Counted from the stretch's first letter, positions 630-19,108 are shown. The stretch is DNA of 25,673 nucleotides from Elusimicrobiota bacterium (GCA_043827405.1 JBDRPD010000036.1:1-25673), one strand, 5' to 3'. The notes: generated by a model from the sequence alone, not told the origin. A program made the numbers and translations.

Positions 630-2383
630 TAGATCGGCTTGCCGGGAGAGGTCTTGCCGCCCGCATAGTCGCGGACCTTGGAAGCGCGGTCGAGCATGCG
701 GCGCGCGTTGGCGTAGTCGCCGCGCCGCTTGTACTGCTCGGCCAGCAGGTGCCAGTGCCGGGGTTCGTCGGGCTCGAGGCGTACCAGCTGCAGCGCCGCT
801 CGATGCGACTGCTCATTCTTGCCCAGGTCGGTGGATACATCGACCAGCAGGCGGTAGGCCTCAGGATCATCCGTGCGGAACTTCACATATGCCAGCAGGC
901 TGCGCTCCGCCTCCGCCCCCCGGTGCAGCGCCGCCAGCGCCGCCGCCTTGCGGAAGTCCAGCCGCCGGTAATGCCGGGCTCGGCGTTCGAGCTGGTCGTA
1001 GCGGCGCAGCGCGTTTTCCCAGTCGCCCGCGCCGGCGGTGAGGTTGGCCGCCAGGTAGCGCGCATGCAGGCCGTTCGGGTGCCACAGCGATACGCCGTCG
1101 AAGCGCGCGACCGCGGCCGCGGTTTCGCCGCGCCCCGCGAGGTGAAGCGCCGTATTATGATTGCAGTCCCAGCCCATCAGGGTCAGTGCCGCGAGGCAGC
1201 CCAGGGCGGCAAGCGCACCGGCGGGCAGGTAAAGCAGCCGCCGCAGTCCCGGGGGCGCCGGGATCGGGATAACGTACACCTGCGCCGCGCCGCGCTCCAG
1301 GGCGAGCCCCGTCAGCGAGCCCGCCAGAAGCCACAGCAGCGCGCCAATTGCCGCCGAGTTCGCGGCCGCTCCGAGCAGCCCGGCCAGCAGAATCGCGAAC
1401 GCGCCGGCCCACTGTCCGGCGATGATGGCGGCGGCCCGGAGTTCGCCTTCGCGCGAGCGCCGCAGGTAGTCCTTGAGAGATGACGCGAAAACGGCAAGCA
1501 GCAGCACCGCACACAGCAGCGCGGGCCCCGTGCCGGAGGCCGGCAGCAGGGAGGGGCGCAGACGCAAAGACAGCAGTGCCGCAAAGCCGCCGCCGTAGGC
1601 GATCGTGCCCAGCGCCGCCGCGGGCACGGCCGCGGCGGCCAGCCAGCCGGCGGCGCGTCCTTCGCCGCCGAGGCGGGCGAGCGCGAAGAGGGAGAACAGC
1701 GCGGCGGCGACGGCGAAGACGGCGAGAGCCGTCCCCGAGCCGGAGAGAATGACGCCGGTGAAGGCCGCGGCCGCGGCCGCATGGGCGGCGAGGCGCTTCG
1801 CGCGCTGCGCCGTGGGGTTAACCGTTAGCGACAAGGCGAGAGGAAAAGCGGCGGCGGAGAAGACGCCCAGCAGTTCCGGCCGTGCCATGGTGGCGAAGGC
1901 TTGCCGGCCATAAGCTCCCTGCCAAAGGAGCGGGTCCAGGCCCGCCGCCTGCAGCACGGCGTAGAGCCCGGCGAGCCCGGCGGCGGCAGATGCCGCGGCG
2001 GAGAGTCCGGCGGCGAACGAGACCGAAGCCGGCCCGGTTGCGACGAGCAGGAAGAGGGTGACAAACAGCAGGAAGCGCATGAGCGGGAAGGCATAGAGCT
2101 CCGGCTGAGCGCTCAGGGCCCAGACGACGAGCAGCCAGCCGCACAGCGCTTTAGCCAGTACGGCGATCAAGGTGCGGTTGGCCGGCCATTCGACGCGTCC
2201 TGCTTCAATATGGCGCGCAACGGTGCAGAACCATATGACGCAGACGCCGGCGAGCAAAGTCGCTTCTTTAACGAGGTCCGTGTTGTAGGTCTTTAGATAG
2301 AAGGCGAGCGGCAGCACGAAGGCCAGGAGTTTTACTCCCGCGTTCGCGCCTTTTTCCCAGAATTCGGTAAGGCGTTCATTCAT
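626..2383 (-). CDS. O-antigen ligase (Wzy_C/WaaL)-like multi-pass membrane protein with C-terminal TPR repeats; appears degenerate
   Basis: About 12 hydrophobic segments, the motif YAVLQAAGLDPLLWQGAYG..FAT typical of WaaL-like proteins, and C-terminal TPR-type helices (ENALRRYDQLE, PDEPRHWHLLAEQY..GDYANARRML). ATGA overlap with the upstream gene. Confidence 0.65.
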   Translation of the reverse strand: MNERLTEFWEKGANAGVKLLAFVLPLAFYLKTYNTDLVKEATLLAGVCVIWFCTVARHIEAGRVEWPANRTLIAVLAKALCGWLLVVWALSAQPELYAFPLMRFLLFVTLFLLVATGPASVSFAAGLSAAASAAAGLAGLYAVLQAAGLDPLLWQGAYGRQAFATMARPELLGVFSAAAFPLALSLTVNPTAQRAKRLAAHAAAAAAFTGVILSGSGTALAVFAVAAALFSLFALARLGGEGRAAGWLAAAAVPAAALGTIAYGGGFAALLSLRLRPSLLPASGTGPALLCAVLLLAVFASSLKDYLRRSREGELRAAAIIAGQWAGAFAILLAGLLGAAANSAAIGALLWLLAGSLTGLALERGAAQVYVIPIPAPPGLRRLLYLPAGALAALGCLAALTLMGWDCNHNTALHLAGRGETAAAVARFDGVSLWHPNGLHARYLAANLTAGAGDWENALRRYDQLERRARHYRRLDFRKAAALAALHRGAEAERSLLAYVKFRTDDPEAYRLLVDVSTDLGKNEQSHRAALQLVRLEPDEPRHWHLLAEQYKRRGDYANARRMLDRASKVRDYAGGKTSPGKPIY

Positions 2384-2775
2384 CGCTGAGCCTCCAGTAC
2401 GCGGGCGGCTTCACCTGAGTGAGCCTGCGACGGCTGGCCGCCGGGAAGGGCATGGGCGGAAAGGAGCAGCGCACAGTAGACCAAAGAGCAGGCTTGAGCC
2501 GGCGACAAGCGAAGCGCCTCGCGCAGTTCCAGCGGCGCCTCCGCCGGTGCGCTTTCCTCGCGCAGTTTTTTCAGGATTGATTCGGTCAGTCCCGCCGGCA
2601 CTTCGATATTTATTTCGCCGGAGCGGACGACAGGCATGAGCGCTTCGTGTTCGGCGCGGCATTCCTCACATTCCTTGAGGTGTGTTTTGACGCGCCTGGC
2701 GGCGCCCGCCGTAAGGCGGTCATCTACATAGAGATCCAGAATATTGCGTACGCTCCAGCAGCGAAAGAAGCTCAT
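2380..2775 (-). CDS. Zinc-binding anti-sigma factor (zf-HC2/ZAS) with one TM helix
   Basis: N-terminal Cys, LDLYVDDRL and the HxxxCxxC motif (HLKECEEC), plus a hydrophobic segment near the C-terminus. Lies directly downstream of the ECF sigma with an ATGA overlap. Confidence 0.85.
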   Translation of the reverse strand: MSFFRCWSVRNILDLYVDDRLTAGAARRVKTHLKECEECRAEHEALMPVVRSGEINIEVPAGLTESILKKLREESAPAEAPLELREALRLSPAQACSLVYCALLLSAHALPGGQPSQAHSGEAARVLEAQR

Positions 2776-3308
2776 GGCTTTCTCCCTTTGATAAAAGACG
2801 CTAAATTTTTTCGCAGCAGCTTGCGGCCCCGGAAGACCCGGACGCCCAAAGTCGAGGCGGGGATTTCCAGAATTTTCGCGGCTTCATCGTAGGCATAGCC
2901 TTCCAGGTCGACCAAGGCAACGGCTACGCGCATCTCCGGCGGCAGAGTTTTCATCGCGTTGCGTACGGCCTCCTGTTGGTCCCGTCGTTCCATGGCGTCT
3001 TCCGGGGTTGGTCCGGGGTCCACCAAGGTTTCGGCGTAGGAGCGCCGCTCCTCCTCCGGGCCGCGTTCGAGCGGGTCCTCCTTGCGGCGCTTCTCCTGGC
3101 GCAGACGGTCGATGAACAGGTTGCGGATGATGCGATAGAGCCACTGCTCGACCTTGTAGGAAGGGTCGTAGGTGTGAAAGCTCTTGAGTACCCGCAGCAT
3201 CGCATTTTGCACCAAATCCCCGGCCGCTGCCTGATTTCCGGTGAGGTGAAAAGCCACCGAATAGGCGTACGGCGTGTAGCGTTCGACAATCTCTTTGGCC
3301 TGTTCCAC
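2772..3308 (-). CDS. ECF RNA polymerase sigma-70 family factor
   Basis: Region 2 (AYSVAFHLTGN..A.DLVQNAMLR..WLYRIIRNLFIDRLR) and region 4.2 (LPPEMRVAVALVDLEGYAYDEAAKILEIPASTLGVRVFRGR). GTG at 3308 is preferred to the track's TTG at 3395 because the extra 29 codons are not sigma-like. Confidence 0.9.
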   Translation of the reverse strand: MEQAKEIVERYTPYAYSVAFHLTGNQAAAGDLVQNAMLRVLKSFHTYDPSYKVEQWLYRIIRNLFIDRLRQEKRRKEDPLERGPEEERRSYAETLVDPGPTPEDAMERRDQQEAVRNAMKTLPPEMRVAVALVDLEGYAYDEAAKILEIPASTLGVRVFRGRKLLRKNLASFIKGRKP

Positions 3309-3345
3309 GTTGTTATGTGACCGTCGCAGACGCCTCTGGGTGCTA

Positions 3346-3372
3346 TACGAGCGGGGCCGCGCGGTTATTTCA
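3346..3372 (-). promoter_or_regulatory. Putative ECF-type (autoregulatory) promoter TGAAAT-N17-CGTA
   Basis: The minus strand reads ctTGAAATaaccgcgcggccccgctCGTAtag-like sequence about 38 nt upstream of GTG 3308, resembling the SigW-type TGAAAC-N16-CGTA consensus. Confidence 0.35.
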
Positions 3373-3521
3373 GCCAATTTTGCCTTCCCCAGCAAGCGGG
3401 GGTCCTAGGTCCCAGGTGATTAGGGGCCTTTTTATATGAGGAATTTTCCTGAAAGACCCATCCCATTCCGGGCATTTTGCAGTATTCTGGACTCCCAATG
3501 CGGAGACCCCTGGAGGCGCAG

Positions 3522-6500
3522 ATGCTTACGTATTTTCCTAATAGAGACACCCTTAAGAAGCTTCTATCCTGCGGTATCGCCGTGTCGCTGACGGCCTTAT
3601 CCCCCGGGATCGGTTCATATCAAGCCTGGGCGGCCAATATCGTCGCCGTACCCGCCAAGGTCGCGGCGCCCAATGTCCGCGTCGGGATGGTTCCGGGAAG
3701 CGTCTCCGCCAAGCCTCTTTCCCTGGACACCTCCGTCTCCGCCGGCATCGGGCTGAAATCCGCGCTGCCCAATGTGGGTTCCGTCGCCATGCAGTCCGGG
3801 ATTTCGGCGCCCTCAGTTAAGACCGCGCCCGTCATTTCGCCGGTGGCGAAGACCGTGCTCAAGCAGGCGGCCGCCGTCGGTTCAAATGCGGCCGGCCGCG
3901 CGGTTAGGGAAGTCGAACAAAAGACGCGGATGCAGAAAGGCGTGATCGGGCGGCTGACAAGCGCCGTCAAAGCGCTGCCCAAGATGCTCAGCCTGCAGGG
4001 CGGTTCGCTCAAGCAGGCCGCAGGCAATAATTTCGATAACGGCGCGGTGCGGCCCGCGCGCGGCAGCGTCCCGGCTTCTTGGAATTTCAAAGCCGCGCGC
4101 AACGGTCTCGGCGGAGGCGGCGACTTTAACGCTCCGCAGCCCGGGAAGGACGCGCAGGCGATGGCGCTGCTCAAGGAGCTGCGCAAGGGGCTTGAGCCCG
4201 GCGACCGTGTCGCGGCGAGCTACATCAAAGGGGCGGCGGCGCTCCTCGGCGTAGCGCAGGACGAGGTCATCCGCCGGCTGACGATCCTGACGAAGTACGG
4301 CTATTTCGCTTCGCTGCATAACGGGAACTTTATATATACCGACCTCGTTGATCGCGCGGAGGACGGAGATGACGAGAATGTTCGCGCCGCGCGCGTCATG
4401 GCGAAATACGGGACGCTGCTCCTCAACAGCCGGACGACGATCGACCACGTGCGGTCCTTCTTCCAGCTCAACGACGCCGCCCGCAAATTGGGCGACGACG
4501 CCTCGGGCAAGACGCCCCACGCCGACTACCGGCAGACCGCGATTCTCCGGGACAATGCCGGCCTGACCGTGCTGCGCGATATCCTCAAGCAGTACGACGG
4601 CGTGCTCGCGCAGGAGAAGGGGGCGGCTGCCGCCGCCAAGCGGCAAAAGATCGGACCGATCCTAGCTTACATGAGCGAGTCCTATTTCGATATCGCGAAC
4701 AATCCCGCGCCGCTTCCCGCGGCGCACGCCAAAACGCTCAGCGAGCTGGTCGAAGGCTTCGATAGGGAAGTCTTTTTCAGCGATAAGAACTATAAGCAGA
4801 TAAACGCGGCCTTGATGCTGCTGCCGAAGTTTATCGCGCAGCTCCAGGCCGGAGCGCGCAGCGACATCGCTCCCCAGAGCGAGAGCACGGCGCTGGTGCC
4901 GTCGGACCAGACCGTCGGGCGCCTGCCTGAAGAGACGCGCGAAGGCTTCGCCAAGGAGCTCCGGCAGGGGTTCCAGCCCGGCGAGGAGGTCTCGGCGGAG
5001 ATGCTCGGCCTTATCGGCGAGTCGCTGCAGCTCGGCCCCAAGGAGCTGGCCATCGCCAAGATGGAGATGACCTACTTCGGTCACTTGGCCCGGACCGGCA
5101 ATGGCCGCTATATCCATGTCGCGCTTGATAAGTCCGCAGGCTCGGACAAGGAGCTCAACGACGCCTCAATGAAGGCGCGCACCGGCTACCGGCTCATGAG
5201 CGAGGGCAAGCTGGAAAGCAGTGCCGAGGCCCTGCGCATGCTGAGCGAGGCGCATAATACCTTCCAGGAGCGCATGGCTCAGGGCAAGGACAGCGCCAAC
5301 CGCCTGCAGACCGAGGTCCTGCGCGACAACGCCGCCATGGACCTGTTGCGCGGGCTGCTGCAGGACGCCAAGACGCCGTCCGACGGCGCCATACTCAAGA
5401 CGCTCGAGACCGCCTTGTATTCCGTCGACTCTAAGCAGGGCGCGCGCGTGGCGGCGGAGTCGCCGCTCAGCCCGGGGCAGTGGAGCTCTCTCCAGCCCGT
5501 TATCAGCCGGCTGGCCGCCCGCAAGGATCTCGCCCACCTCCGCCCGGGAATCCAGGTGCTGGCGAAATTCGCGGCTGACCGCGATATCCCCGCAGCGCCG
5601 GCGGCGGCGCCCGGTCCGAGCGAGGCCGCCAAGAGCTTCCCGGTCATCGCGGATACCGACAAGTCCTACGCGAACCTCAACAAGTACGGGATCAATATCA
5701 CCGGCAAGGCGGCGCGCGGCGAGTATCATCCGCTGATCGGCCGGCGCAAAGAGATCCGGCAGATGCTCAAGACCCTGCTCCGGGTGGAGAAGAACAACCC
5801 GGTGGTTATCGGCGAGAAGGGCGTCGGCAAGACCAAGGTGGTGGAGGGGCTGGCGCAGATGATCGTTGACGGCGACATCCCGCAGCTCAAAGACATCAAT
5901 ATTTTCAAGCTCGACGTGACGGCGCTCGTCGCCGGCACCAAGTACCGCGGCGAGTTCGAGGAGCGCCTAAAAGGCGTGATCGACGAGGCCAAAAAGGGCA
6001 AGGGCAAGGTCCTGCTCTTCATTGATGAGATCCACTCCATCATCGGCCTGGGTTCGGCCTCGGGCTCGACCGACGCCTCACAGATGCTGAAGGAAGCCTT
6101 GAGCTCCGGCGAGCTGAGCCTGATCGGGGCGACGACGCTCGACGAATACCGCAAGATCGAAAAAGACGCGGCGCTGGAGCGGCGCTTTAATCCCATCACG
6201 CTCAAGAGCCCGACGCCCGATGAGGCGGTCGAGATTTTGCAGGGCGTGAAATACCGCTACGAGAACAAGCATGGCGTGACCATCCCGCTGGCGACGGTCA
6301 AGGCGGCGGTGGCGCTGGCCGTGCGCTACATCAAGGCCCGGTCTCTTCCGGACTCGGCCCTCGATCTTATCGACGATGCGGCGGCCGAGGTCAGCCTGCG
6401 TGCGGTCGAGGCGGAAGCCCAGGGGGAGGAGCCGCTTCTCGTCGTTACCGAGAACGACATCGCCACCGAGATCAATATTCGCACCGGCATCCCGGCGCAG

Positions 6501-9500
6501 GACCTCTCCCAGGACGACATGGAGAATCTGAAGAAGCTTCCGGGCGAGCTCGCCAGCCGCGTGATCGGCCAGCATGCGGCGGTCGACGCCGTCGCCAGCG
6601 CCATCCGGCGTTCGCGCCTCGGCTATGCCGAGGAGAAGCAGCCGATCGGCACCTTCGTGTTCCTCGGGCCGACGGGCGTGGGCAAGACCGAGTTCGTGCG
6701 GGTGCTGGCCAAGAACCAGTTCGGCGCGGAGCGCAATATCGTCCGCATCGATATGTCGGAATATCAGGAGAAGCATTCGGTTTCGCGTCTGATCAGCGCC
6801 CCTCCCGGCTACGTCGGCTTTGAGCAGGGCGGCCAGCTGACCGAGCCGGTGCGGCGCAACCCGCATACCGTGGTGCTCTTCGATGAGATAGAGAAGGCCG
6901 CGCCGGAAGTGCTCGACGTTCTGCTGCAGGTGATCGAGGACGGCCGCCTGACCGACGGCGCGGGCCGCACGGTGGACTTCTCCAATACCATTATCGTTAT
7001 GACGTCGAATATCGGCGGCAGCCTGGGCGTCGTTGAGAAGAAGCGCCGCATCGGCTTCGTCTGGGAAGAGGACGAGCAGCCGCAGCCCCAGCGGGAGGCG
7101 GACGAGCGCCGCGACGGCTACTTCGCCGCCTTCAAGGCGCGGGTCAAGCCGGAGTTCTACAACCGGATCGGCAAGCGCCGCGTCATCGTCTTCAATAACC
7201 TGTACCGCGAGCAGCTCGACAAAATCCTGGATCTGCGCCTCGGCGATCTCAACGCGCGTCTGGCGTCCAAAGCGATGACGGTTGAGCTGACCAAGACGGC
7301 GCGCAAGTATATCCTCGACGACGCGACCAGCGCCGAGAACAAGGCCTACGGCGCGCGGCCGCTCAAGCAGGTGATCGAGCATGAGGTTATGGATGCCCTC
7401 GTCGACGCTGAGCTCGACGGCCGCATCTCGCGGGGAGATAAGGTCAGCATTAGCGTCAAGGACGGCCGGCTGGCCGTTTCGCGCCAGGGACGGACGCCGG
7501 CCGACATGAAGGGTTATATGCTGGGCGGCCTCGCGGCGGTCTCCGCTCTGGCGCTTCCCGGCTGGTTGTTTCCGGCGGTGGGTCTAGCGGCGGTGCTGAT
7601 CGCGGCGGGGCTTTATGCGCGGGCGAAGTCCGGGGCTCTGCGGGGCCCGCCGGCCGCCAACGACGGCCTGCTGGGGCCGGGTTATCGCCTGCACAAGAAA
7701 GCGCTCTCGGCGGTCATGATGCTCTCGGTGGCCTTCCCCTTCCTGCATATTCCGCAGCCGAGCGCGCCGCGCATGTCGCCCGAGAACCGGCACGCGCTCG
7801 TTGAGCGCTACAAGGCCAAGAAGCCCAAGCTGCTGCTGATGGACTGGGACAATACCTTTATGGCCAACCGTAATACGCTCAATGATGAAGCGCAGCAGGA
7901 GCATTACGAGCTGCTGCGGGCGCTGCGTGAGGAGGGCATCCGCATCGGCTTCGTCACCAACCGGCCGTTCCAGGGCAAGGGCTTCGGCTTGCAGGACTTG
8001 CTGATGCGCGGGATGGATAAGGCGACGGCGGCGAAGTTCCTGCTGGCCGTCGGCGGCGGCGCCGAAGTCTACCGCTATGGGGAGAACGGCGAGACGCCGG
8101 TCGCGCCCGCCATGAAGATGACCTTCATTGCGGATGCGGACCGGGCGGCCATGAAGGCCGCCATTCGCGAGACCGGAGCCGGTCTCGGTCTCGTCGCGGG
8201 TGATTTTCGCGATCAGAACGAAAAGAGCTACGAATACACCTATATCCTCGAGAACCACCGCGATCAGATCAAGCCGCTTTACGACGGGCTCATGCAGCGC
8301 ATGCGGACCGCCGGCCTCGCCGACAAGTATAAGTTCCAGCTCAAGATGCCGGTCAATCCCGAGCATCAGCCCTATATCCGCGTGCGCGTTCTGGGGGCGG
8401 TCAAGGAGAACGGCGTAAAGGGCATTCTCGCGCTTCTTAAAGAGGAAGGCGTCGAGATCGCGCCGGAAGAGGTGCTGTTCTTCGGCGACGAGTTTAATCC
8501 CGGCAATGACGACGTGTCGATGGCGCGCTCGCTGCCCGCGGCGACGGCGATCGCCGTCGGCCAGGATGCCGACCCGCGGGTACGCAATGCCTATCTGACG
8601 CCCGGCATCGGACCGGTCTCCACTTTGGCCTTCCTGTGGGATATGCTGGGCCGCAAGCCCGCAGCGGGCGCACAGGGCTACTACCAGTCCATGGGACGGC
8701 CGTATCTGGGCCGGGAAGCCTGGCTGTCGGCGCGCTATAAGCCGATCCTGCAGGCCGGCATTTTCGCCGGCTTCGCGCTGGGCGTGATGGGCTTTGTTCT
8801 CCTTTATAAAGCGACCGGAGGCCTCGCCGTGCTGCTTCTGCCGCTGGTGACCATGGCCGGAACCTTTATTGGGGACCGGATGGCGCGGGGTTCGATTGAG
8901 CAGGTGCGCCGCGAGTATGAGGCGCTGCTGCGCGCCAAGCCGGGGGTGACCGGGGTCGGCATAACGACCAAGGATGGGCGCAGGCTGATCGCGGTCTACT
9001 ATGCATCCGAAGCGTCGAAAGTCGAGAACTCGACCGAGATCCCGGAGATGATTAACGGCTACGACGTTGTCGCCGAGGTCAAGGAGTCGGCGACGGCGAT
9101 GCGCGAGGTGCGCATACCGGGCGTCGATGCCATGGGCTTGGTATCGATGTTCGGCCTGGGGATGGCGAAGTTCACGGCTAGGGCCGCCGACGTGACGCTG
9201 CAAAGCGGCGAGGCCAAGCCCGCCGAGGGCGATCTGAGCTATACCGATGTTCTGTTTTTTCAGGAGACGCTGAAGATCACCCGGCGCTTCCTCGATCAAT
9301 TCGTCAAGCAGAACACCGGCTGGTGGTCGCGGGTTTCCGGCAAGCAGCGCCTGGTCGAGCTGGCACGGCAGGCTTTTCTCCAGGAGTTCGAGCAGGGCCG
9401 CAAGCCCGCCTTCAATATTACTTCGAAGGTCGACGGCGAGAAGCGCGTCATGCTGGGGCCCAACGGTGAGTCGATCGCCGAACTCCTGTGGCAGCAGCTC

Positions 9501-10172
9501 AAGCAGCAGACCAGTCTGAATGAAGAGAAGCTGCAGCGCTACCTTAAGATCGCCCGCCGCGTGCACGGCGAACGTACGGCGAATCTGCACGTCCTGCATG
9601 ACGCCGGCGGTTTGCCGGCTTTCGGCGAGCAGCTCGCGGGCGGGCTCGTGAGCCGTCTGCTGAGCGTCTATCCGATTGTGCCGGCAGCCAGCTTCGGCGG
9701 GAAGCCGTACCTCGGCAAGAAGGCCTGGCTCTCGGCACGCTACAAGCCGATTTTGCAGGCCGGCATCTTCGCCGGCTTCGCGCTCGGTTTGCTGGGCTTC
9801 GGCGCCCTGCACGCGATGACCGGAGGACTGTCGCTTCTCCTGGTGCCGCTGCTCACGGTCGCGGGAACCTTGATCGGCGACCGCATCGCCCGCGGTTCGA
9901 TCGACAAGGTCTACCGCGAATATGAGACCCTGCTGCGCCGCCAGCCCGGTGTACGCGCTGTCGGCACGACGACCCAGGATGGACGCAAAGTCATAGCGGT
10001 CTACTACGACAATGCAGCGTCCATTAAGGAATATGCTTCCAAACTGCCGGAAATGATCAACGGCTATGATGTCATCGCCCTGGTCGCCGGACAGCAGCGA
10101 GGAAACCCGACCTATCGCGAGCAGGCCGCCGGCGGACTGGCCTCGCGGCTGCGGCAGAATCTAGTCAAATAA
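3522..10172 (+). CDS. Giant multidomain protein: signal-like leader, low-complexity linker, 2x helical repeat domain, ClpA/ClpC-type AAA+ ATPase, TM segments, HAD-IIB hydrolase, 2x TM-hairpin module
   Basis: GGAGG at 3512-3516 precedes ATG 3522 (the track used TTG 3477). NBD1: [51 protein letters not shown]2: [47 protein letters not shown] motifs: [20 protein letters not shown]. Confidence 0.9.
8694..10079 (+). repeat. Intragenic duplication: 381-nt/127-aa module at 8694-9074 and 9699-10079
   Basis: The copies align without gaps, with about 87/127 identical residues by hand count, including the identical run [22 protein letters not shown]. Confidence 0.95.
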
Positions 10173-10204
10173 TTGAAGTTGAATAAATTTGCGTTGTTAA
10201 AATA

Positions 10205-10307
10205 AGCCTTTTCCGGTAAGGCTATTGGCCTATTCCCGTCTAGGCCAATTAATCGATGTTGGTTGGGTCCTACGCTGCATGTGGGACCTCATAAGTGCCG
10301 GTATAAT
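10205..10307 (+). promoter_or_regulatory. Intergenic regulatory region: three inverted repeats followed by a TATAAT box
   Basis: agcctt-N7-aaggct (10205-10223), attggccta-N8-taggccaat (10224-10249), ggtcctac-N7-gtgggacc (10266-10288), TATAAT at 10302-10307, and GGAGG at 10324-10328. Confidence 0.55.
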
Positions 10308-10336
10308 TTTTACATGACCGCCCGGAGGCGCCGTAT

Positions 10337-13300
10337 ATGATTAAAAAACAGATTAATTTTATGCTGAAAAAATCTATCGCTCTCGTTGTGGCCGCGGCCC
10401 TGGTCGCGACCGCTCCCGGCTTGGGGACTTACGAAGTCCTGGCCAATAATTTCGCCGCCGGCGCGGCTAAAGGCGTATCCGTGGTGCCGGGCGGCACTTC
10501 GGCCGCGGGGGTGGGCGGGATCAACAAGGCTGGCTTCTCCGGGCACAGCCTGAACTCATCGATCAATATGGATTTCAGCGGCGGTCTTCCTTCCGTCGAG
10601 TCGGTCATTCATACCGGCAGGGTGAATGCGGTCGCGGTTGGACAAAACGCGGTAATGCGGATGCCTACCGGCGGCGGCAATGAAGGCGAAGGCCTTGAAG
10701 ACGGCCTCCTGAAGCACAAGCAGCCCGGCACTCCCGCGGCGATGATAAAAGGCCCGACCGGCGGCGGCAACCAGGGCGACAAGAAAGGCGGCGAGCAGAC
10801 GTCGCGGCCGACCAAGGGTATTCCCGCCTGGGTAAAACAGGGCAATCTCAATCTCAAAGGCGTCGACGTCGCGGAAATGTCGGCCGCGCAGGCGCGGTCT
10901 TTCGGCGCCCGCATGATGGATCAACTGCTCGGCCGCAAGACCGGGCGCTATGCCGAACTCAGCGCCGCTCCGGTCGCCGGCGTCATCGGAAACGTCAGGA
11001 GCCGGATGCCGGGCCTCAAGCCCGTCGCGCTGAGCCGCGCCTCCTCTTCCGATGCTGTTGCGACGGACGCCGTGCCCGCGGCGGAAATCGCCGCTAACGG
11101 CGGCAGCGCGCCCCAGGGCCGCGGCAGGATTTTTGGCTTCGTGAAGACGGTCGCCGTCATGGCGGCCGCCGCCGGCGCCGTTTTCGGCGTTCATGCGGCG
11201 GCAGCGGCGCTGCTGCCCGCGGTTTTCGGCACGGTTCCGATCGCGGCCGTCTGGGCCGTGAGCACGGGAGTGTTTATCCTCCCGGTGGCGCTCTACTCCC
11301 GCTACCGCCTGAGCCTGCGCGACTCGGCGCGGTTGGGCAAGGTCAAGATTTTCGCTGATCTGGCGATCGGCGCCTTCATTGGAGCGTCCGCCATCGCCGC
11401 GCCGGTGCTTTTCACCGGTGCGGTTATGCAGAGCATCGCGGTCTCGCTGCCGGCCGTCCTCGGCCTGACCTATGCCGCCACTGCGTCCAACCAGAATACG
11501 GACGGCATGGTCGGCGGCATCATCAATTCCATCCTGACCTGGATGTCGCTCAATCTCATCGCGCCGCTCTTCGGCACGGCCGTCGGGGCGCTGCCGATTA
11601 CCTTGGGTTCTGTTTTCGGCCTGATGGCGATTCCGGCCATGGTGACCTTCTCCTTCTTCCTCGGCCGCATCATACGCTCGGCTGAGAGCGGGCGGCAGTT
11701 TTCGGTGCCGGGCTCGCAGCAAAAGATCCGCTTCCCGTCCTATACCTGGGTCATGACGGGCGTCGTGTTCGCCCTGCTGACCGGCTATAACCCGGTATGG
11801 ACCAATGCGGCCTTCGGCGCCTGGATGCTCTTGGGCTCGAAGAAGTGGTTCAACTACGTCTACTTTGCGCTCCTGGGCTGGTCGGCGATAACCGGTTTCG
11901 CCGCGCCGGTGACCTTCCTGGCCATCGCTTTCCTGCCCGAGCGCGCGTCCATGTGGACGGAGAACCTGCTTGAGAAGCTGCTCCCGGAAGGCAAGGCGGC
12001 GCCTTCGACGGCCAAGGAGCAGACGATCGACCCGTACATGGACAAGCCGGAGAGCTGGCCGCGCTTCCGCTACTGGCTCAAGACCGGCATCGTCATGGCC
12101 TCGCTGGTGGGCGCGGGCGTGGTGCTGAGCGCCACGGTTTTCGGTTTCGGCAAGTTTTTCGTCAATCTGGGCATCGCCGGCGCCCTGTCTTTGGTCCCGC
12201 TCATTTTCAGCAAGTGGCTGATCAAGAAGACCATGCGCGCCGAGCCGATGAGCGAGGAGGATGATCCCGAGGTCTTCGGCATCATGCGGGAGCTCCGGGA
12301 GAAGATCAATGAGGAAAGGACCGCGAAAGGCAAGAAGCCCATCCCGATGCCGGAGATGGTCAACGTGCCGATGCAGGTGCCCAACGCTTTCGCTACCGGC
12401 TTTAGCCCGATGAGCGCCATGGTCGGCGTGACGTATGAGATGAAGGACATGACGCTCAACCCTCGCCGGGCCAAGGAGGGCCTGATACGACTGCTCTACA
12501 GCGTCGATCCGCAGAGCAAGTCCTACCGCGTATTCCGGCGTGCGATTCGCGGCTCGATTCCCGGGATCGCCGAGGATGCGGGACCGCAGGAAGTTATCCA
12601 GGCCCTGCAGGACGCCGAGGCTTCCCAGATCAAAGCGCTGGGCGTGCGGGCGCTGCGCGGCGTGATGGGCCATGAATTCAGTCATGTGATGCACCGCGAC
12701 ATGCTGTTGGGCGCGATCACCGGGGCGGTCGCTTCCGCGATTTCATTCGCTTCCTACGGCGTCCTGTGGGCCGCCGGTCATGCCGAGGCGATGCTGCAGG
12801 GCTTGTGGGATAAGATCACCGGCAAGAAGGCCAAGGCGGACCAGCGGGCGCGCAAGGGCAAGCCGCCGGTTCGGATGCCCGAAATGAGCGTCGATGCCCA
12901 GTCCGCACCCGAGGCGCAGCCGGGGCCGGTCAGGCCCGAGGTCGTGGATCCGGTCACGACGGCCGCCGGCGTCGGCATTCTTCTGGGCTTGGCGAAGATC
13001 TTCGCGGCACTGTGGGCGCCGATTATGGCCCGTGTTCTGCAGATGGCTTCTGGACGCACCCGCGAGGGGCATGCCGATGAGGCGGGCGCCGAGCTGACCG
13101 AGGACCCCGAATCGCTCGCGCTGGGGCTCGGCCTGCTGACCTCTTGGCGGCCGGCCAGCATGTTCACCTTCGAGCGGGCGCTGCTGCCGCGGCTCGCCGC
13201 GATGGCGAATGTCATGACGGTCAACCCGCTGCAGCAGCTGCGCGAAGCCGGCGCTCTGCCGGGCGCGACCCCAAAGAGCGTCAAGGGGATGCCGGTGACC

Positions 13301-15244
13301 CAGCAGGACGACTGGTTCTTCAACCTGTTCATTACCCATCCCGATACCACGCAGCGCATCGAGCGCCTTGACGCGATGGCGGAGGCGCTCGCCGCACAGC
13401 AAAAGTCCGACGCCGCGGCGGCCGATGAGAGCGGCGCTCCCTCTTCCCGTTCCGACGGCAGCCTGCGGGCGGCGTCCTCCCTGGGCGAATCGTCCAGCGT
13501 CGATCCCAACAGCACCGAAGCGCTGGCCAAGCCGGGACTGGATGTGCGCCTGATGCCGCTGGCGCAGGTGCTGCAGGATGAGATCACTTCGTCGCAGGAG
13601 AAGTTCAATAAGCTGGGCCACCTGCTGTGGACGCTCGACGAGCTGCTCAAGCGGGGCGGCGTGGTGCGCTACGCCTACACCTTCGATCCGGAGACCCAGG
13701 AGTCCCTCCCGGGCTTCTTCAACCCTTCCGAGAAGGCGCTTTATATCAATGACACGATCATGCGGGCGGAGCCGCGCCTGCAGGGTTCAATTTTGGCGGG
13801 GCTTCTGCAGCAGGCCTATGACCACCTCAATAGCCGGGCGGCGGGGACGCAGGAGTCCGCGGTCCGCCAGATTCTGGCCCGGGACTCTTTTCTGGACGGC
13901 GCGGATATGGCGGATATCGCCAAGTCGGTAGATATCGGCAATGTCGTTTCGGTGGAGCTCTTCGAGTCCGTGCTGCAGAACCGGCTGTGGGCCGCCTCCG
14001 GCATGTCGGCGCTGGAGCGGATTTTCGGCGAGAGCGTGAGCATCAATCATCTGATTCAGCGGGGCAAAGACCATGTCTCCCTGCTCAAGCGCGAGCTGCG
14101 CGATCTCGAGGACCAGATGCAGCTGTTCGAGGATGGACTGCGCAAGGACAAGGGCAATGAAGGCTATGACCGCCAGGTTCGGGTGCTGCGGGAAAAGATC
14201 GGGATCAAGAAGGGCAATATCCGCGTGGCCCAGACCCAGCTCAAAATGGCCGAGACCGAGCGCGGCGCCGCCGAGTCGCTGCTGACGCCGCTTTCCGTCG
14301 ATAAGGCCCATCGCGCACGATTCGATACCAATAAGCTCGGCGTTGTCGGCGTCAAAGCCCGGCCCAAGGTCGACCCCAAGCTGCAGACGGTTCTCAATAT
14401 CATCGGCGAGACCATTCGCACCAGCAAGGATCCGGCGATTCGCGGTCTCGCCTATATCGAGGAGACGGTCGAGAAGCTGCTGGAGTCGGGCGGCCATATC
14501 CAGTTCGCGGCCCCCGGCGACGGCGCGGCGGCCTATTTTTCGCCGGTGACCCTCGACGTGGTCATCGGGCGCGAGTTCGCGCAGACCCATCCGGCGCTGA
14601 TCGCCGCCCTCATGGTGCACGAATTGACCCATGCGGCGGACTACTTCGGCGTGCCGAGCCGAAAGGGCGAGCCCTGGCTGCAGCGGCCGCTGACGCGCGA
14701 GACCGAGCGCAACGCCTTTACCAACGAGGCGATCTTCATCGGCGCCTTCGATCCGGAGGAGGTCGCCTCCCGCCTCGACGTCAATAATCCGATGGAGCAT
14801 GCGGCTTACCAGCTCGTCTTCCATGCGCGGATGAAGTACGTCGAAGGCAAGACCAGTCTGGAGGCCATGATCTCCGACGCCTACCGCGACCTCTTCGGGG
14901 CGCATTTCAGCGGGCTGCAGACCGCCCAGCAGTTCAAGGCGGAGATCGCCAACAGCAAGCTGGCGAAGATCGTCGAAGCCTATGAGGACCTCCGGCAGCG
15001 CGCTGAGCTGACCCAGCGGGCGGTGGAGAACGGGCAGGAAACCCGGCGGGTGCAGCTGCTGCAGATGCTCAAGGCGCTCTCCCTCTACGAGGCCTATATC
15101 ACCGTTTACCAGCGGCAGATGGCGCAGATGGACCTCGAGGCGGCGGAGGCGGGTCCCGAGGAGTTTTCCGCCGATTCCCGGACCGCCGACCCGGCGCGCT
15201 GGTCCCTGTTCGGCCTGCGCCGCAAGGCTGATCGGGCGTCGTAA
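10337..15244 (+). CDS. Giant multidomain membrane metalloprotease: signal-like leader, linker, polytopic TM domain, HtpX/M48 peptidase, two tandem zincin-like + coiled-coil units
   Basis: GGAGG RBS. M48 motifs PNAFATG (NAF at 12383), GVMGHEFSH (HEFSH 12671-12685), R.RE..AD (13064) and THP....RI..L (13334). A second HExxH, HELTH (14618-14632), has a downstream E..A (ETERNAF). More than 10 hydrophobic helices lie in ~11130-12230. Confidence 0.9.
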   Translation: MIKKQINFMLKKSIALVVAAALVATAPGLGTYEVLANNFAAGAAKGVSVVPGGTSAAGVGGINKAGFSGHSLNSSINMDFSGGLPSVESVIHTGRVNAVAVGQNAVMRMPTGGGNEGEGLEDGLLKHKQPGTPAAMIKGPTGGGNQGDKKGGEQTSRPTKGIPAWVKQGNLNLKGVDVAEMSAAQARSFGARMMDQLLGRKTGRYAELSAAPVAGVIGNVRSRMPGLKPVALSRASSSDAVATDAVPAAEIAANGGSAPQGRGRIFGFVKTVAVMAAAAGAVFGVHAAAAALLPAVFGTVPIAAVWAVSTGVFILPVALYSRYRLSLRDSARLGKVKIFADLAIGAFIGASAIAAPVLFTGAVMQSIAVSLPAVLGLTYAATASNQNTDGMVGGIINSILTWMSLNLIAPLFGTAVGALPITLGSVFGLMAIPAMVTFSFFLGRIIRSAESGRQFSVPGSQQKIRFPSYTWVMTGVVFALLTGYNPVWTNAAFGAWMLLGSKKWFNYVYFALLGWSAITGFAAPVTFLAIAFLPERASMWTENLLEKLLPEGKAAPSTAKEQTIDPYMDKPESWPRFRYWLKTGIVMASLVGAGVVLSATVFGFGKFFVNLGIAGALSLVPLIFSKWLIKKTMRAEPMSEEDDPEVFGIMRELREKINEERTAKGKKPIPMPEMVNVPMQVPNAFATGFSPMSAMVGVTYEMKDMTLNPRRAKEGLIRLLYSVDPQSKSYRVFRRAIRGSIPGIAEDAGPQEVIQALQDAEASQIKALGVRALRGVMGHEFSHVMHRDMLLGAITGAVASAISFASYGVLWAAGHAEAMLQGLWDKITGKKAKADQRARKGKPPVRMPEMSVDAQSAPEAQPGPVRPEVVDPVTTAAGVGILLGLAKIFAALWAPIMARVLQMASGRTREGHADEAGAELTEDPESLALGLGLLTSWRPASMFTFERALLPRLAAMANVMTVNPLQQLREAGALPGATPKSVKGMPVTQQDDWFFNLFITHPDTTQRIERLDAMAEALAAQQKSDAAAADESGAPSSRSDGSLRAASSLGESSSVDPNSTEALAKPGLDVRLMPLAQVLQDEITSSQEKFNKLGHLLWTLDELLKRGGVVRYAYTFDPETQESLPGFFNPSEKALYINDTIMRAEPRLQGSILAGLLQQAYDHLNSRAAGTQESAVRQILARDSFLDGADMADIAKSVDIGNVVSVELFESVLQNRLWAASGMSALERIFGESVSINHLIQRGKDHVSLLKRELRDLEDQMQLFEDGLRKDKGNEGYDRQVRVLREKIGIKKGNIRVAQTQLKMAETERGAAESLLTPLSVDKAHRARFDTNKLGVVGVKARPKVDPKLQTVLNIIGETIRTSKDPAIRGLAYIEETVEKLLESGGHIQFAAPGDGAAAYFSPVTLDVVIGREFAQTHPALIAALMVHELTHAADYFGVPSRKGEPWLQRPLTRETERNAFTNEAIFIGAFDPEEVASRLDVNNPMEHAAYQLVFHARMKYVEGKTSLEAMISDAYRDLFGAHFSGLQTAQQFKAEIANSKLAKIVEAYEDLRQRAELTQRAVENGQETRRVQLLQMLKALSLYEAYITVYQRQMAQMDLEAAEAGPEEFSADSRTADPARWSLFGLRRKADRAS

Positions 15245-15673: not shown

Positions 15674-16539
15674 GCGGCATTCGGGTTCACTTTTGGGGCA
15701 CGCGCGGTTCGATTCCTGTTCCCGGCAAGGGTACCGTGCGCTACGGAGGCAATACCTCCTGCGTCGAGATCAACGACGGCAAGAACCTGTTCATCTGCGA
15801 CTGCGGCACCGGCATCCGCGAACTGGGACGGCGCATCATGGCGGAGACCAAGGGCGCGCCGGTCGAGGTCGCCCTATTCGTCGGTCATACGCATTGGGAC
15901 CATATTCAGGGCTTCCCCTTCTTTATCCCCGCGTACCTGCCCAAGAATAGGGTCCATGTCTACAGCGTCAAGGCCGTAGGGGACACTTTTGAGAATATTC
16001 TTCGCGGCCAGATGGGCATGAACTACTTCCCGGTCGAGGTCGGGGATATGCAGGCGCAGATCGAGTTTAAGCATACCTCGGCGGAGTTCGAGGTCGGCGG
16101 CGTCAAAGTGCGTACGATGTATACCAATCATCCGGGCGTGAACGTCACGTTCCGCTTCGACTATCCTGGCGGCAAGTCGGTGGTTTATTTGACGGACCAT
16201 GAGAATCATCAGGCGTTCGGCGGGAAAAACGAGCTGATGGTGCGCCAGGACGATGCGATCGAGGAGTTCTGCCGCGGCGTCGACCTGCTGATCGCCGACT
16301 CCCAGTACAGCGACGCGGACTACAAGATGAAAAAGGGCTGGGGCCACAGCCGCTGGCGCGACGCGCTGAACCTGGGGATGGCGGCGGGCGCCAAGCGCCT
16401 CGCCCTGTTTCATCATGAGCCGGACCGCAACGACGACGAAATCGACAAGATAGTTCAGGAGTGCCGAGAGGTTGTTAAGGCCTCTGGGAGCAAGCTCGAT
16501 TGTTTCGCCGCATCTGAAAATGAGGAGGTCATTCTCTGA
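15670..16539 (+). CDS. MBL-fold metallohydrolase (RNase Z / class II cyclic nucleotide phosphodiesterase-like)
   Basis: FWGTRGSIP, YGGNTSC, DCGTG, HTHWDHIQG (HxHxDH), TDHE, WGHS and FHHEP. ATGA overlap with the receiver gene. Confidence 0.9.
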   Translation: MSGIRVHFWGTRGSIPVPGKGTVRYGGNTSCVEINDGKNLFICDCGTGIRELGRRIMAETKGAPVEVALFVGHTHWDHIQGFPFFIPAYLPKNRVHVYSVKAVGDTFENILRGQMGMNYFPVEVGDMQAQIEFKHTSAEFEVGGVKVRTMYTNHPGVNVTFRFDYPGGKSVVYLTDHENHQAFGGKNELMVRQDDAIEEFCRGVDLLIADSQYSDADYKMKKGWGHSRWRDALNLGMAAGAKRLALFHHEPDRNDDEIDKIVQECREVVKASGSKLDCFAASENEEVIL

Positions 16540-16540
16540 T

Positions 16541-17176
16541 ATGAAACTGCTGCTCAGTCTGTTTACGACATCCATCGGCAAGAAACAGTTCGTCGCCGCG
16601 ACGGGTCTGCTCTTGATCGGCTTCCTGCTCGGTCATTTGACGGGAAACCTCCTGATCCTGAAGAGCCCCGAGCTCTTCAATCAGTATGCGGATTTTCTGG
16701 TCCATCACCCGCTGATCATCCCCGCGGAGATCGGCCTGGTTGTGCTGTTTTCGGCACATATCGTAATGGGGCTCAAAATCAGTATTGAAAATTGGAACGC
16801 GCGTCCCGACGATTACGACTACAAAGTCGCGGAAGGCGGCCGCACGGTGGGCTCGGCGACCATGAAGTATTCGGGCCTGCTTACCTTTGTGTTCTTGTGC
16901 GTGCATCTCTCCACCTTCAAGTACTCGCATCCGGGCGCGACGCTCTACGATACTGTGGTTATTTACCTGAAAATGCCGCTTTACTGTGCGTTCTACTTAT
17001 TGGCGCTGACGTCGCTGGGTATCCATCTGAGCCACGGCATAAAGAGCGCCTTCCAGACTTTCGGCGTGAGCCATCCGAAGTACACGCCGGCGATCGGCGT
17101 CGCCGGTCTGCTGCTCGCGGTCGCGGTCACGGCGGGTTTTCTGCGGCTGGCGCTGCACGGGATTATAGGGGGCTGA
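16541..17176 (+). CDS. sdhC: Succinate dehydrogenase/fumarate reductase cytochrome b subunit (b558 family)
   Basis: SIGKK..A.TG..L..FL..HL.GN, five TM helices and four candidate heme-ligand His (HL, HI, HL, HLSHG..SAFQT). GAGGAGG RBS at 16522-16528 precedes ATG 16541. Confidence 0.92.
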   Translation: MKLLLSLFTTSIGKKQFVAATGLLLIGFLLGHLTGNLLILKSPELFNQYADFLVHHPLIIPAEIGLVVLFSAHIVMGLKISIENWNARPDDYDYKVAEGGRTVGSATMKYSGLLTFVFLCVHLSTFKYSHPGATLYDTVVIYLKMPLYCAFYLLALTSLGIHLSHGIKSAFQTFGVSHPKYTPAIGVAGLLLAVAVTAGFLRLALHGIIGG

Positions 17177-17179
17177 GCG

Positions 17180-19108
17180 ATGACATCAACCGAGAAGCTA
17201 CTGAACGCGAATATCCCCGACGGGCCCATTGAGACGAAATGGGACCGCCATCAGTTCAATCTAAAGCTCGTCAACCCGGCCAATAAGCGCAAATATGATG
17301 TTATCGTCGTCGGTACCGGGCTGGCCGGCTCCTCCGCGGCGGCATCGCTCGCCGAGCTGGGCTACAACGTCAAGGCCTTCTGCATTCAGGACAGCGCCCG
17401 CCGGGCGCACTCGATCGCGGCCCAGGGCGGAATCAACGCGGCCAAGAACTACCCCAACGACGGCGACAGCATCTTCCGCCTCTTCTACGACACGGTAAAG
17501 GGCGGCGACTACCGGTCGCGCGAAGCCAATGTCTACCGCCTGGCCCAGGTCTCCAATAATATTATCGATCAGTGCGTGGCGCAGGGCGTTCCCTTCGCCC
17601 GTGAGTACGGCGGGACGCTGGCCAACCGCTCCTTCGGCGGCGCCCAGGTTTCGCGCACTTTCTATGCCCGCGGACAAACCGGGCAGCAGCTGCTGCTGGG
17701 CGCCTACAGCGCGCTGACGCGGCAGGTGAGCGCCGGCAAGGTCAAGCTCTATACCCGGCGGGAGATGCTCGATCTCGTGGTGGTCAACGGCCGGGCGCGC
17801 GGCATCGTCTGCCGCAATCTCGTCAGCGGCAAGCTGGAGCGCTATGAGGCGCATGCGGTGCTGCTGTGCACCGGCGGGTATGGGAATATCTTCTATCTGT
17901 CGACCAACGCCGCCGCCTGCAATGTGACGGCGACCTACCGCGCCCACAAGAAGGGTGCGTTCTTCGCCAACCCCTGCTTCACGCAGATCCATCCGACCTG
18001 CATCCCGGTCGCGGGCGACTACCAGTCCAAGCTGACCTTGATGAGCGAGAGCCTGCGCAACGACGGCCGCGTCTGGGTTCCGAAGAAGAAGGGCGACGAC
18101 CGCAAGCCCGGCGACATCCCGGAAGAGGATCGCGACTACTACCTGGAGCGGCGCTACCCGGCGTTCGGCAACCTGGTCCCGCGCGACGTGGCGTCGCGGG
18201 CGTCCAAAGCTTCCTGCGACGAGGGCCGCGGCGTCGGCTCGACCAAGCTCGCGGTTTACCTGGACTTCCAGGAAGCCATCAAGCGCGACGGCGAGGATAC
18301 TATCCGCCAGAAGTACGGCAACCTCTTCGAGATGTACAAGCATATCACCGATGAGGATCCGTACCATTCGCCGATGCGCATCTTCCCCGCGGCCCACTAC
18401 ACCATGGGCGGGCTGTGGGTGGACTATAACTTGATGACCACCGTGCCCGGGCTGTTCGTTCTGGGCGAGGCGAACTTTTCCGATCACGGCGCCAACCGGC
18501 TGGGCGCCAGCGCGCTCATGCAGGGGCTCGCGGACGGCTACTTCGTGATCCCGTCCACGCTCGGAGGCTATCTGGGCGCGGAGAAGTTCGATAAGGTTAC
18601 TACCGCGGCGCCGGAGTTCGACGCGGTCGAGCATGCGGTCGATGAAAAGGTGCGCAAGCTGCTTAAGGTCAACGGCAAGCGCACCGTCACCGAGTTCCAT
18701 CGTGAGCTGGGCCTGACCATGTGGGACAACTGCGGCATGGGCCGCAACGAGGTGGGGCTCACCAAAGCGCTGGGCCGCATCGAGGAGCTGCGCAGCGAGT
18801 TCTGGAAGGACGTCAAGGTGACGGGCACGCATATGGACTTCAACCAAGCCCTGGAAAAGGCGGGGCGCGTCGCCGACTACCTGGAGTTCGCCGAGCTGAT
18901 GGTGCGCGACGCCCTCGAGCGCGAGGAGTCCTGCGGCGGGCACTTCCGCGAGGAGCACCAGACGGAGGATAACGAGGCGAAGCGCGACGATGAGAACTTT
19001 GCCCACGTCGCCGCCTGGGAGTTCAAGGGCGACGGCAAGGAGCCGGTGCGCCATAAGGAAGAACTGAAGTTTGAATATGTGAAGCTGACGCAAAGGAGCT
19101 ACAAATGA
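17180..19108 (+). CDS. sdhA: Succinate dehydrogenase/fumarate reductase flavoprotein subunit
   Basis: VVGTGLAG Rossmann motif, [12 protein letters not shown] (covalent FAD His), QIHPT, SESLR, HYTMGG, HGANRLG and REESCGGH. Confidence 0.97.

Follow-up and report, generated by a model that had tools for sequence, protein, structure and literature searches.

Proteins exported through Sec and cut by signal peptidase I (SPI) carry signals with a basic n-region, a hydrophobic h-region, helix-breaking Pro/Gly and an A-x-A site, and bipartite addresses are also known from apicoplast and diatom plastid signals. The present analysis concerns an N-terminal module, hereafter the tag, which opens with a Sec-type signal and is carried by the products of two large plus-strand open reading frames, P0001 and P0002, in a stretch of 25,673 nucleotides (nt) from an Elusimicrobiota bacterium (GCA_043827405.1 JBDRPD010000036.1:1-25673); the whole of this stretch is called the window, and its features are numbered along its full length. 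The tag was recovered in 58 proteins of the same genome (G000; 4.33 Mb, 108 contigs, 63% GC). It is probable, in our assessment, that in this order of free-living Elusimicrobiota the tag acts as a bacterial transit peptide and that a two-step pathway installs a parallel toolkit (for ATP regeneration, protein quality control and the turnover of nucleic acids, lipids and glycogen, together with polytopic transporters) in another prokaryote or in a second, cytoplasm-like compartment of the cell itself, as a modular counterpart of the giant proteins of Omnitrophota.

The signal part of the tag resembles Sec/SPI signals in its n- and h-regions, its Pro/Gly and its A-x-A site, with one canonical SecA per genome, and the tag differs from them in the PG..Y c-region of a subset, in ~100-170 further patterned residues and in a cargo of cytoplasmic and inner-membrane type. 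Two-partner secretion (TPS, type Vb) and autotransporters likewise use a Sec signal followed by an N-terminal region for a second step, and their cysteine (Cys)-poor passengers are unfolded in the periplasm (passages of PMC3297439). However, the TPS domain is a conserved beta-helical region of ~300 amino acids (aa) read by a cognate TpsB (same passages), whereas the tag is predicted to be disordered apart from one helix and serves ~60 dispersed genes; since no Pfam or NCBIfam family matched more than 2/58 tags at E<=0.1 and the fold model was disordered with one helix, an assignment of the tagged proteins as TpsA was rejected. The giant proteins of Omnitrophota combine a signal peptide, many membrane helices, GGDEF, starch synthase and HAD domains and a divergent SecA DEAD domain (passages of 10.1101/2023.11.21.568195 and 10.64898/2026.06.07.730766), and have been linked to predation (West-Roberts et al., passages of 10.1101/2023.11.21.568195). 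A 4,241-aa tagged protein of genome G119 has this layout and is the sole tagged protein sharing it. The giants are single polyproteins of 10,000 to >100,000 aa in the same passages, whereas the toolkit described here is divided among individual genes that have a tag and a promoter apiece; the passages on giants report no shared leader motif. Membership in the giant system (>=10,000 aa, with SecA-DEAD next to a locus resembling a type II secretion system (T2SS)) was rejected, the tagged proteins measuring 310-5,460 aa. The chromatophore transit peptide (crTP) of Paulinella is a long two-part N-terminal address as well, which brings many unrelated housekeeping enzymes into a second cytoplasm by way of a secretory step (PMC12569754 and 10.1101/2021.09.19.461000). 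Such bipartite transit peptides differ in leading from a eukaryotic host to an organelle, so that the likeness is one of working only and no sequence kinship is claimed; moreover, the second part of the crTP is a folded domain, whereas the tag module is predicted to be disordered. In Atribacter laminatus, a member of another little-known phylum, core proteins bear N-terminal additions and compartmentation has been proposed (passages of PMC7736352), but these extensions stand on housekeeping copies (e.g., FtsZ), whereas here extra copies are tagged, with a motif set, a promoter and a purge of cysteines. Passages of PMC11573180 and PMC11495043 were also consulted. No description of the tag was found in the literature searched, which included few subscription journals and no preprint supplements.

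Anatomy of the tag and its family

The two 29-residue leaders (LKKLL...WAAN at 3552-3638 in P0001 and LKKSI...LANN at 10364-10450 in P0002) aligned without gaps, as the original prediction had stated, with 12/29 identical residues and a BLOSUM62 score of 64. Their likeness exceeds that of ordinary Sec signals. When 139 generic signal peptides of G000, selected by regular expression, were paired at random 1,500 times and each pair was scored at its best offset, the mean was 12.4 +/- 8.4 and the maximum 45, and no pair attained 64; a plain Sec/SPI signal with no shared sequence was rejected on this count and because the post-signal part was also informative in the hold-out test given below. The c-region proved specific as well, PG..[YW]xxxA occurring in 17/58 family members vs 1/139 generic signals, and the 17 proteins carrying it were longer (median 1,115 vs 660 aa). 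In the consensus proposed earlier, LKK-hydrophobic-PG[IL]G[ST]YxxxAxN, the PGxGxY c-region holds for this subset, whereas the family as a whole does not conserve the LKK at the start or the N at the end. The cargo domains of the two proteins are unrelated, as had been claimed, with ClpC-type AAA+ and HAD-IIB in P0001 vs HtpX/M48 in P0002. A common ribosome-binding context, GGAGGCGC, does precede both window genes (3512-3519, +, an ordinary GGAGG Shine-Dalgarno sequence, and 10324-10331, +), but it is not a family feature because only 2/58 members have it and CGC follows 11/319 GGAGG sites genome-wide; the match was regarded as incidental.

A hidden Markov model (HMM) of the two leaders, scanned on the genome, retrieved 8 more N-termini at E<0.1, one of them (C105) signal-only, and alignment of the new N-termini revealed conservation extending past the cleavage site. 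Iterating the HMM five times over all 6,847 frames >=200 aa yielded 58 members at E<1e-5, all N-terminal (best reversed-proteome match, E 0.077) and dispersed over 29 contigs; this is a lower bound, with eight borderline frames left outside and a few further members surfacing later, including through an HMM of the FDG helix described below. In a six-fold hold-out, 58/58 members outranked all but <=2 of 3,377 other genes, the usual outranker being a true fragment, and <=5 others stood above 38/58 members with the post-signal part alone and 26/58 with the signal alone, a test that is partly circular because membership was set by the iterated HMM, which counts against our interpretation. Enrichment at N-termini was also evident in a library of 1.84 billion representatives, where 62/62 matches begin within the first 20 residues; ten were looked up, and the four named by organism were Elusimicrobiota. 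The members range from 310 to 5,460 aa, and the tag is thus not confined to giant proteins. Similarly, the leader is real as a conserved unit but forms only the first part of it, conservation running ~120-200 residues beyond the start through an LP segment and the FDG helix.

Four parts were distinguished in the module. The first is the signal, which by sequence inspection has a basic n-region, a hydrophobic h-region (best 19-mer median 3.9 on an insertion scale) and an A-x-A site, the rule by which cleavage sites were deduced. In P0001 it spans 3522-3632 (+), with a PGIGSY c-region, a predicted A-W-A cleavage after residue 37, and no lipobox, RRxF or prepilin motif; in P0002 it spans 10337-10444 (+), with PGLGTY and a predicted V-L-A cleavage, the ATG at 10361 being an alternative start (the library entry begins MLKK). 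Other signal classes were rejected, namely Tat (RRxF[LI] in 1/58, any RR in 16/58, KK in both window proteins), lipoprotein or SPII (lipobox [LVI][ASTVI][GAS]C in 0/58) and class III or prepilin signals (motif in 0/58). The second part, segment A, consists of ~50 residues rich in Ala/Gly/Val/Pro/Ser with 1.7% acidic residues vs 12.4% in generic signal proteins, and is closed by an LP motif in 48/58 members vs 9/119 generic signal proteins; it lies at 3633-3770 (+) in P0001, ending in SALP, and at 10445-10591 (+) in P0002, ending in GGLP. A second membrane helix was considered for this segment and rejected, as it is too polar, with a best 19-mer median of 8.1 vs <=6 for nearly all true transmembrane (TM) minima and a Kyte-Doolittle (KD) value >=1.6 in only 2/58 members. 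The third part is a linker containing Lys/Arg, and the fourth a helix with FD[GN] at its end in 24/58 members, 116-174 aa from the tag start, vs 3/119 generic proteins and 1/55 in a downstream window. In P0001 the basic linker and the amphipathic helix, which ends in F-D-N, occupy 3771-4040 (+). The FDG-helix variant of P0002, ARxxGxxMDxxLG (10892-10933, +), is an island conserved among 11 orthologues, which keep PG..Y, LP and ARxAGxxMDxxLG islands within a divergent region of 270 residues.

An AlphaFold model of the tagged adenylate kinase (Adk), based on 45 aligned relatives, predicted disorder for residues 1-88, a helix at 89-112 ending at FDG, and then a confident kinase fold. The best scores in the ESM Atlas were 0.85-0.87 and serve as leads only. 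It was also observed that the tags C56:216 and C92:216, one of them cut by a contig end, are near-identical over 70 residues, reflecting either a recent duplication or an assembly repeat.

Cysteine content and shared promoter

Two further signatures, Cys content and promoter, are independent of the family definition, neither having been used in it. The mature parts of the tagged proteins contained 15 Cys in 53,250 residues, vs 531 expected from the genome rate, and 49/58 contained none; in the same genome, Cys made up 1.08% of soluble, 0.87% of polytopic and 0.60% of generic signal proteins. Comparison of tagged with leaderless proteins gave 1 vs 10 Cys for GlgA, 0 vs 5 for RNB, 0 vs 6 for ABC, 0 vs 4 for SDF and 0 vs 3 for ClpC, while three tagged/leaderless paralogue pairs lacked Cys on either side, and the zinc-binding pair of the deaminase was among the Cys that remained. 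Among relatives, 17/19 tagged frames were Cys-free, and 22 foreign library matches held 12 Cys in 15,036 residues. Low Cys content is a trait of chains held unfolded in the periplasm (passages of PMC3297439), and unfolded transit of an oxidising periplasm would account for the purge.

Upstream of the tagged genes, GGNCC-type half-sites were detected at 40-110 nt in 48/55 cases vs 271/1,287 genes with comparable intergenic space, as well as before 18/19 tagged genes of relatives. A promoter model trained only on 18 regions from the relatives (site B, 21-24 nt and a TANAAT box, with a second site ~22 bp further upstream of site B) reached a median of 10.8 bits in the 55 tagged genes vs 1.0 in 1,492 others, and scored >=10 bits in 34/55 vs 100/1,492 (p 8e-22). 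In the window, P0002 scored 14.1 bits, P0001 10.2 and, on the minus strand, the gene of an extracytoplasmic function (ECF) sigma factor 19.0. The P0002 promoter covers 10240-10307 (+), with site A at 10240-10250, site B at 10263-10279, a spacing of 22 nt and TATAAT at 10302-10307. For P0001, the upstream-motif model placed tandem GGNCC half-sites at 3401-3414 in the intergenic region shared with the ECF sigma gene; AGACCC, 23 nt and TATTCT (3454-3488, +), an alternative motif with a sigma-70-type -10, were placed by eye and are not the best site of the model. The ECF sigma factor gene and a zf-HC2 anti-sigma gene lie at 2380-3395 on the minus strand, divergent from P0001, with intergenic palindromic sites common to both directions, and the sigma gene could belong to the tag regulon or regulate it.

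The regulon was broader than the tag and included eight secreted FDQ[GQ] proteins. Because these co-regulated proteins retain cysteines, the purge goes with the tag and not with the promoter. The FDQG class itself (C54, C76, C83, C53 and C87) has FDQG-[VI]-D-V-x-x-V-V right behind the signal, mostly the same promoter, several paralogues and a Cys content of 0.5-6.4%.

Cargo, route and destination

The Pfam search assigned to the cargo enzymes of nucleotide and sugar metabolism (adenylate kinase, PPK2, uridine kinase plus cytidine deaminase, glycogen synthase and two alpha-amylases), proteins of proteolysis (two Clp AAA+, LonC-type, M3, M28, S8, S41, trypsin-PDZ, M48, M50 and Rce1), other enzymes (RNB, phospholipase D, endonuclease I, EEP, Fic, nucleotidyltransferases, HD domains and ATP-grasp) and membrane or other proteins (a VWA/TPR/DUF58 fusion, seven MFS, ABC, SDF and MscS), with ~20 tagged proteins lacking a Pfam match. 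A leaderless paralogue was present in the genome for 20/27 cargo queries. With the two housekeeping Adks, the tagged Adk shares 28-29% identity; it belongs to an Elusimicrobiota clade of its own, in which the kinase motifs are intact and 38 matches have a long extension (one, P0169, not tag-like); FD[GN] stands <=45 aa from the P-loop in 25/38 of these long matches.

In 16/17 soluble domains tested, no helix with KD>=1.4 lay between the signal and the domain (Adk, PPK2, GlgA, RNB, LonC, the ClpC of P0001, M3, two amylases, HD-GYP, Fic, nucleotidyltransferase, DUF3626, EEP, phospholipase D and endonuclease I), the stretch of P0001 from signal to AAA+ domain being free of hydrophobic segments, and in 7/7 MFS cargoes none stood ahead of TM1. 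The Udk and ATP-grasp domains sit after multi-helix regions, and MFS motif A or a variant was retained in 4/5 MFS cargoes checked. With the signal exported, the ATP-dependent domains and the normally cytoplasmic MFS N-termini would therefore lie outside the cell's own cytoplasm.

As to where they go, we tentatively favour the possibility that the tag sends ~60 co-regulated, Cys-purged second copies through Sec and then into the cytoplasm and membrane of another prokaryote, prey or host, because the cargo is bacterial in type and hydrolase-rich and because of the likeness to the Omnitrophota giants; proteases, nucleases, a lipase, Fic and nucleotidyltransferase domains, in which the cargo is rich, speak for such a foreign target. 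The module would then be a two-part address, the signal for Sec and the rest for a second translocation. The chain would be exported unfolded by Sec and cleaved by SPI, cross the oxidising periplasm unfolded, be recognised by a receptor through the FDG helix and/or segment A, be threaded through a second machine, for which the syntenic cluster of a SecA-like protein and a 5,460-aa giant is the candidate, and refold in an ATP-containing cytoplasm, the destination being the least certain of these steps. In the target, ATP would be sustained by Adk and PPK2; digestion or remodelling would fall to ClpC, LonC, M3, S41, DegP, HtpX, S2P, Rce1, the RNase II-family protein, endonuclease I, phospholipase D and the amylases, and the transport of solutes across the target's membrane to MFS, ABC, SDF and MscS.

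The original prediction had invoked a dedicated export route. Its first half, a family-specific N-terminal signal as opposed to a chance Sec similarity, was borne out, and no known route was found to track the tag among five genomes in which route markers were checked. The type III secretion marker FHIPEP (FlhA/SctV) and the type VI marker VipB were each detected in 0/5 genomes. Type IV secretion was rejected, VirB10 (TrbI) occurring only in G000 and the tag-negative G018, as was an accessory Sec, with a single SecA over the cut-off in 5/5 genomes and a second SecY only in G000 and not in the tag-positive G013, G017 and G021. Loss of the signal recognition particle (SRP) did not serve as an explanation, as its GTPase was not found in 5/5 genomes (P-loop fragments only), tag-negative ones included, and Omp85 paralogues were rejected for being present in G018 too. 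Secretins occurred in 5/5 genomes, tag-negative included, and matches to the T2SS/type IV pilus ATPase family, also seen in tag-negative genomes, numbered 22 in G000, 10-15 in three other genomes of its order and 4 in a small one of the class; neither tracked the tag. Substrates of such type II or type IV filament systems are folded in the periplasm, and the Cys purge of the tagged proteins argues for unfolded transit. The ATP/ADP translocase PF03219 gave partial matches only, also in G018, and was not diagnostic.

The candidate machine, proposed from its sequence, is the cluster on contig C22, whose synteny extends to G013 and G017; it includes promoter matches and the tagged 5,460-aa giant, and ends in a 797-aa remnant in G018. 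One of its products, of 3,058 aa, carries a PG-type signal, an N-terminal part with six Cys, a middle rich in Gly/Ala and collinear SecA-like motifs, and was matched in 24/30 relatives (one match being the remnant) and nowhere outside the order in the phylum sample. A phmmer search with the genome's own SecA missed this protein, and its SecA-like region gave a low-confidence model (pLDDT 60) with no Foldseek match at E<=0.001. Gly/Ala-rich membrane proteins without a Pfam family were noted at C22:64496-73166 (L080), C30:478-2154 (L083) and C1:47374-48807, sharing a basic N-terminal tail, an N-terminal helix, an NVTPYQ-like motif and a C-terminal hydrophobic hairpin, with synteny in G013, G017 and G018; the FDG-helix HMM gave no link between the tag and those of the C22 cluster. 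Between the two giants, a gene that by eye resembles the IS200/Y1 transposase of the window (C22:50882-51907, L088, L091) is kept, 52-55% identical, in three genomes, suggestive of a domesticated regulator.

Several observations weigh against transfer of the tagged proteins into another prokaryote through this machine. Strict FD[GN] is missing from 34/58 members. The 46 short leaderless relatives of Adk are also Cys-poor (3/8,429 residues), so that the low Cys content of the tagged Adk may be inherited. Searches with LonC, the M48 of P0002, MscS, S41, M28, DUF3626 and the MFS subfamily yielded no leaderless paralogue at E<1e-5, and in the ClpB-like protein on C50 and the ABC protein the domain is preceded by a hydrophobic segment. 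Part of the cargo is of kinds usual in the periplasm (S8, S41, DegP, M28 and endonuclease I), and GlgA, MscS, VWA/BatA/DUF58, HD-GYP, Adk/PPK2 and the quality-control proteases fit the upkeep of a compartment as easily as the digestion of prey. For the machine, the SecA-like protein was not found in 6/29 tag-positive relatives, three of them >=94% complete, and the giant was matched in 26/30 relatives including the tag-negative G018, where its N-terminus lacks the module. The likeness to SecA is weak (pairwise hhalign E 3e-4 and 0.05, with collinear motifs), and a PDB sequence search with the SecA-like region gave nothing relevant.

The principal rival retains the tag and Sec export but places the destination in an ATP-containing compartment of the cell itself, such as an enlarged, energised periplasm, an internal lumen or vesicles, which we hold to be rather doubtful. 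The evidence of export and Cys purge applies equally here, Adk, PPK2, GlgA, MscS and HD-GYP would be upkeep cargo, no known injection system tracks the tag, and Atribacter laminatus offers a precedent with an extra membrane, N-terminal extensions and unusual Sec signals (passages of PMC7736352). However, the twelve-helix MFS proteins follow the linker directly with a normal inside-type N-terminal flank, and such a compartment would therefore need a membrane whose 'inside' faces the lumen of the exported enzymes; moreover, nucleases, phospholipase D and Fic are better suited to a foreign target, and no compartment of this kind appears in the descriptions of the order consulted (PMC9476967; passages of 10.1101/765248).

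Plain Sec secretion, with a promoter-leader cassette spread by duplication, the disordered part serving as propeptide, spacer or surface anchor, and enzymes that are periplasmic, surface-bound or dispensable, is unlikely. ATP- and ADP-glucose-dependent enzymes with intact motifs would be without substrate in a normal periplasm and polytopic transporters would have the wrong orientation; a lowered Cys content is general among secreted proteins (0.6% here), but the purge is ~20-fold stronger than in generic signal proteins and absent from the co-regulated FDQG class. One near-identical tag duplicate (C56, C92) and several normal periplasmic enzymes among the cargo fit such a cassette, as does segment A, which is of low complexity and drifts between lineages (the HMM caught 3/37 foreign long Adk), whereas the position of FDG is conserved across lineages.

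A third rival keeps the proteins inside the cell that makes them, in its cytoplasm or inner membrane, with the tag as an uncleaved anchor or hairpin or as an SRP-independent targeting device in an SRP-less phylum. It would place every cytoplasmic-type domain and MFS N-terminus with its substrates and accords with the SRP GTPase not being found in 5/5 genomes, but it is more unlikely still: N-in/C-out export is predicted from the basic n-region, the A-x-A site and the lack of charge in the segment downstream, the polarity of segment A (KD>=1.6 in 2/58) would not let the chain return, the cytoplasmic enzymes of the genome hold 1.08% Cys, SRP is equally missing in tag-negative genomes, and leaderless transporters exist.

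Window genes, relatives and implications

The P0001 gene (3522-10172, +) encodes 2,216 aa, with no Cys in the mature part, and its domains run from the tag through an unassigned region, a ClpC-type AAA+ pair, a membrane segment and HAD-IIB to a duplicated C-terminal membrane module (~8700-10100). The two AAA+ modules (5730-7451, +) are of ClpA/ClpC type with Walker A/B, an IGF loop and GARP, and the HAD-IIB-like hydrolase domain (7830-8522, +) was assigned by motifs and by TIGR01484 at E 2e-6, under the curated cut-off. Ahead of the AAA+ pair, a unit of ~220 aa occurs in two copies (~4150-5650) with no NCBIfam match. The P0002 gene (10337-15244, +) encodes 1,635 aa with no Cys, and its tag is followed by a multi-pass membrane region, an HtpX/M48 peptidase domain (12350-13378, +) with intact HEFSH, ExxAD and THP motifs, and a C-terminal region with a second HExxH; the latter region (~13500-15100) resembles two zincin-like units, the first degenerate and the second with an intact HELTH. 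P0001 and P0002 are adjacent in the relative G013 too. Downstream of P0002, at 16472-19854 and 19925-20782, lie what appears to be an sdhCAB-like operon and an IS200/Y1 transposase (PF01797); both appear unrelated to the tag.

At E<=0.01 the tag profile had 5-34 matches in each of 29/30 relatives within the order, and none in the remaining one, G018 (97% complete). This genome also lacks a P0002 orthologue and has a truncated SecA-like partner, a giant without the module and a retained promoter motif, and it is a possible natural loss of the tag. In a phylum sample of 151 genomes, 12 matched at E<=0.001; besides G000 itself these were five genomes of the order and six others of the class, the six with weak matches. 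Of the weak matches in genomes of 1.4-1.8 Mb of this class, those of G098, G059 and G157 were rejected as tags, being signal-only on inspection, and the full module was not seen in G149 and G153. The profile under-counts, as only 3/37 foreign long Adk matches scored, weakly, while nearly all have a signal and a low-complexity segment, often with FDG; segment A has drifted in G021 and G027, which retain FDG and the PG signal. One of the weak matches in the class, in G119 of a neighbouring order, is the 4,241-aa protein (L068:320-13042), which was found to have a PG signal, the promoter motif and N-terminal cysteines, together with GGDEF, a region resembling SecA-DEAD (E 0.005) and an MFS domain; a tagged MFS is the best match of this domain in G000.

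The order UBA1565, to which we infer that G000 belongs, has been described as aerobic heterotrophs with amino-acid auxotrophies, and an enrichment is on record from an amoeba culture that was not axenic (PMC9476967). The tag, the promoter and the Cys purge are three cheap sequence signatures that together define a substrate set and make the question of its destination testable. We know of no bacterial pathway in which polytopic transporters and ATP-dependent housekeeping enzymes pass through Sec and are then placed in a second cytoplasm, and the close parallels to such a pathway are those of eukaryotic organelle import. If true, the proposed pathway would provide a handle on the unexplained topology of the Omnitrophota giant proteins and would point to a lifestyle, as predator, parasite or compartmented cell, for a widespread uncultured order.

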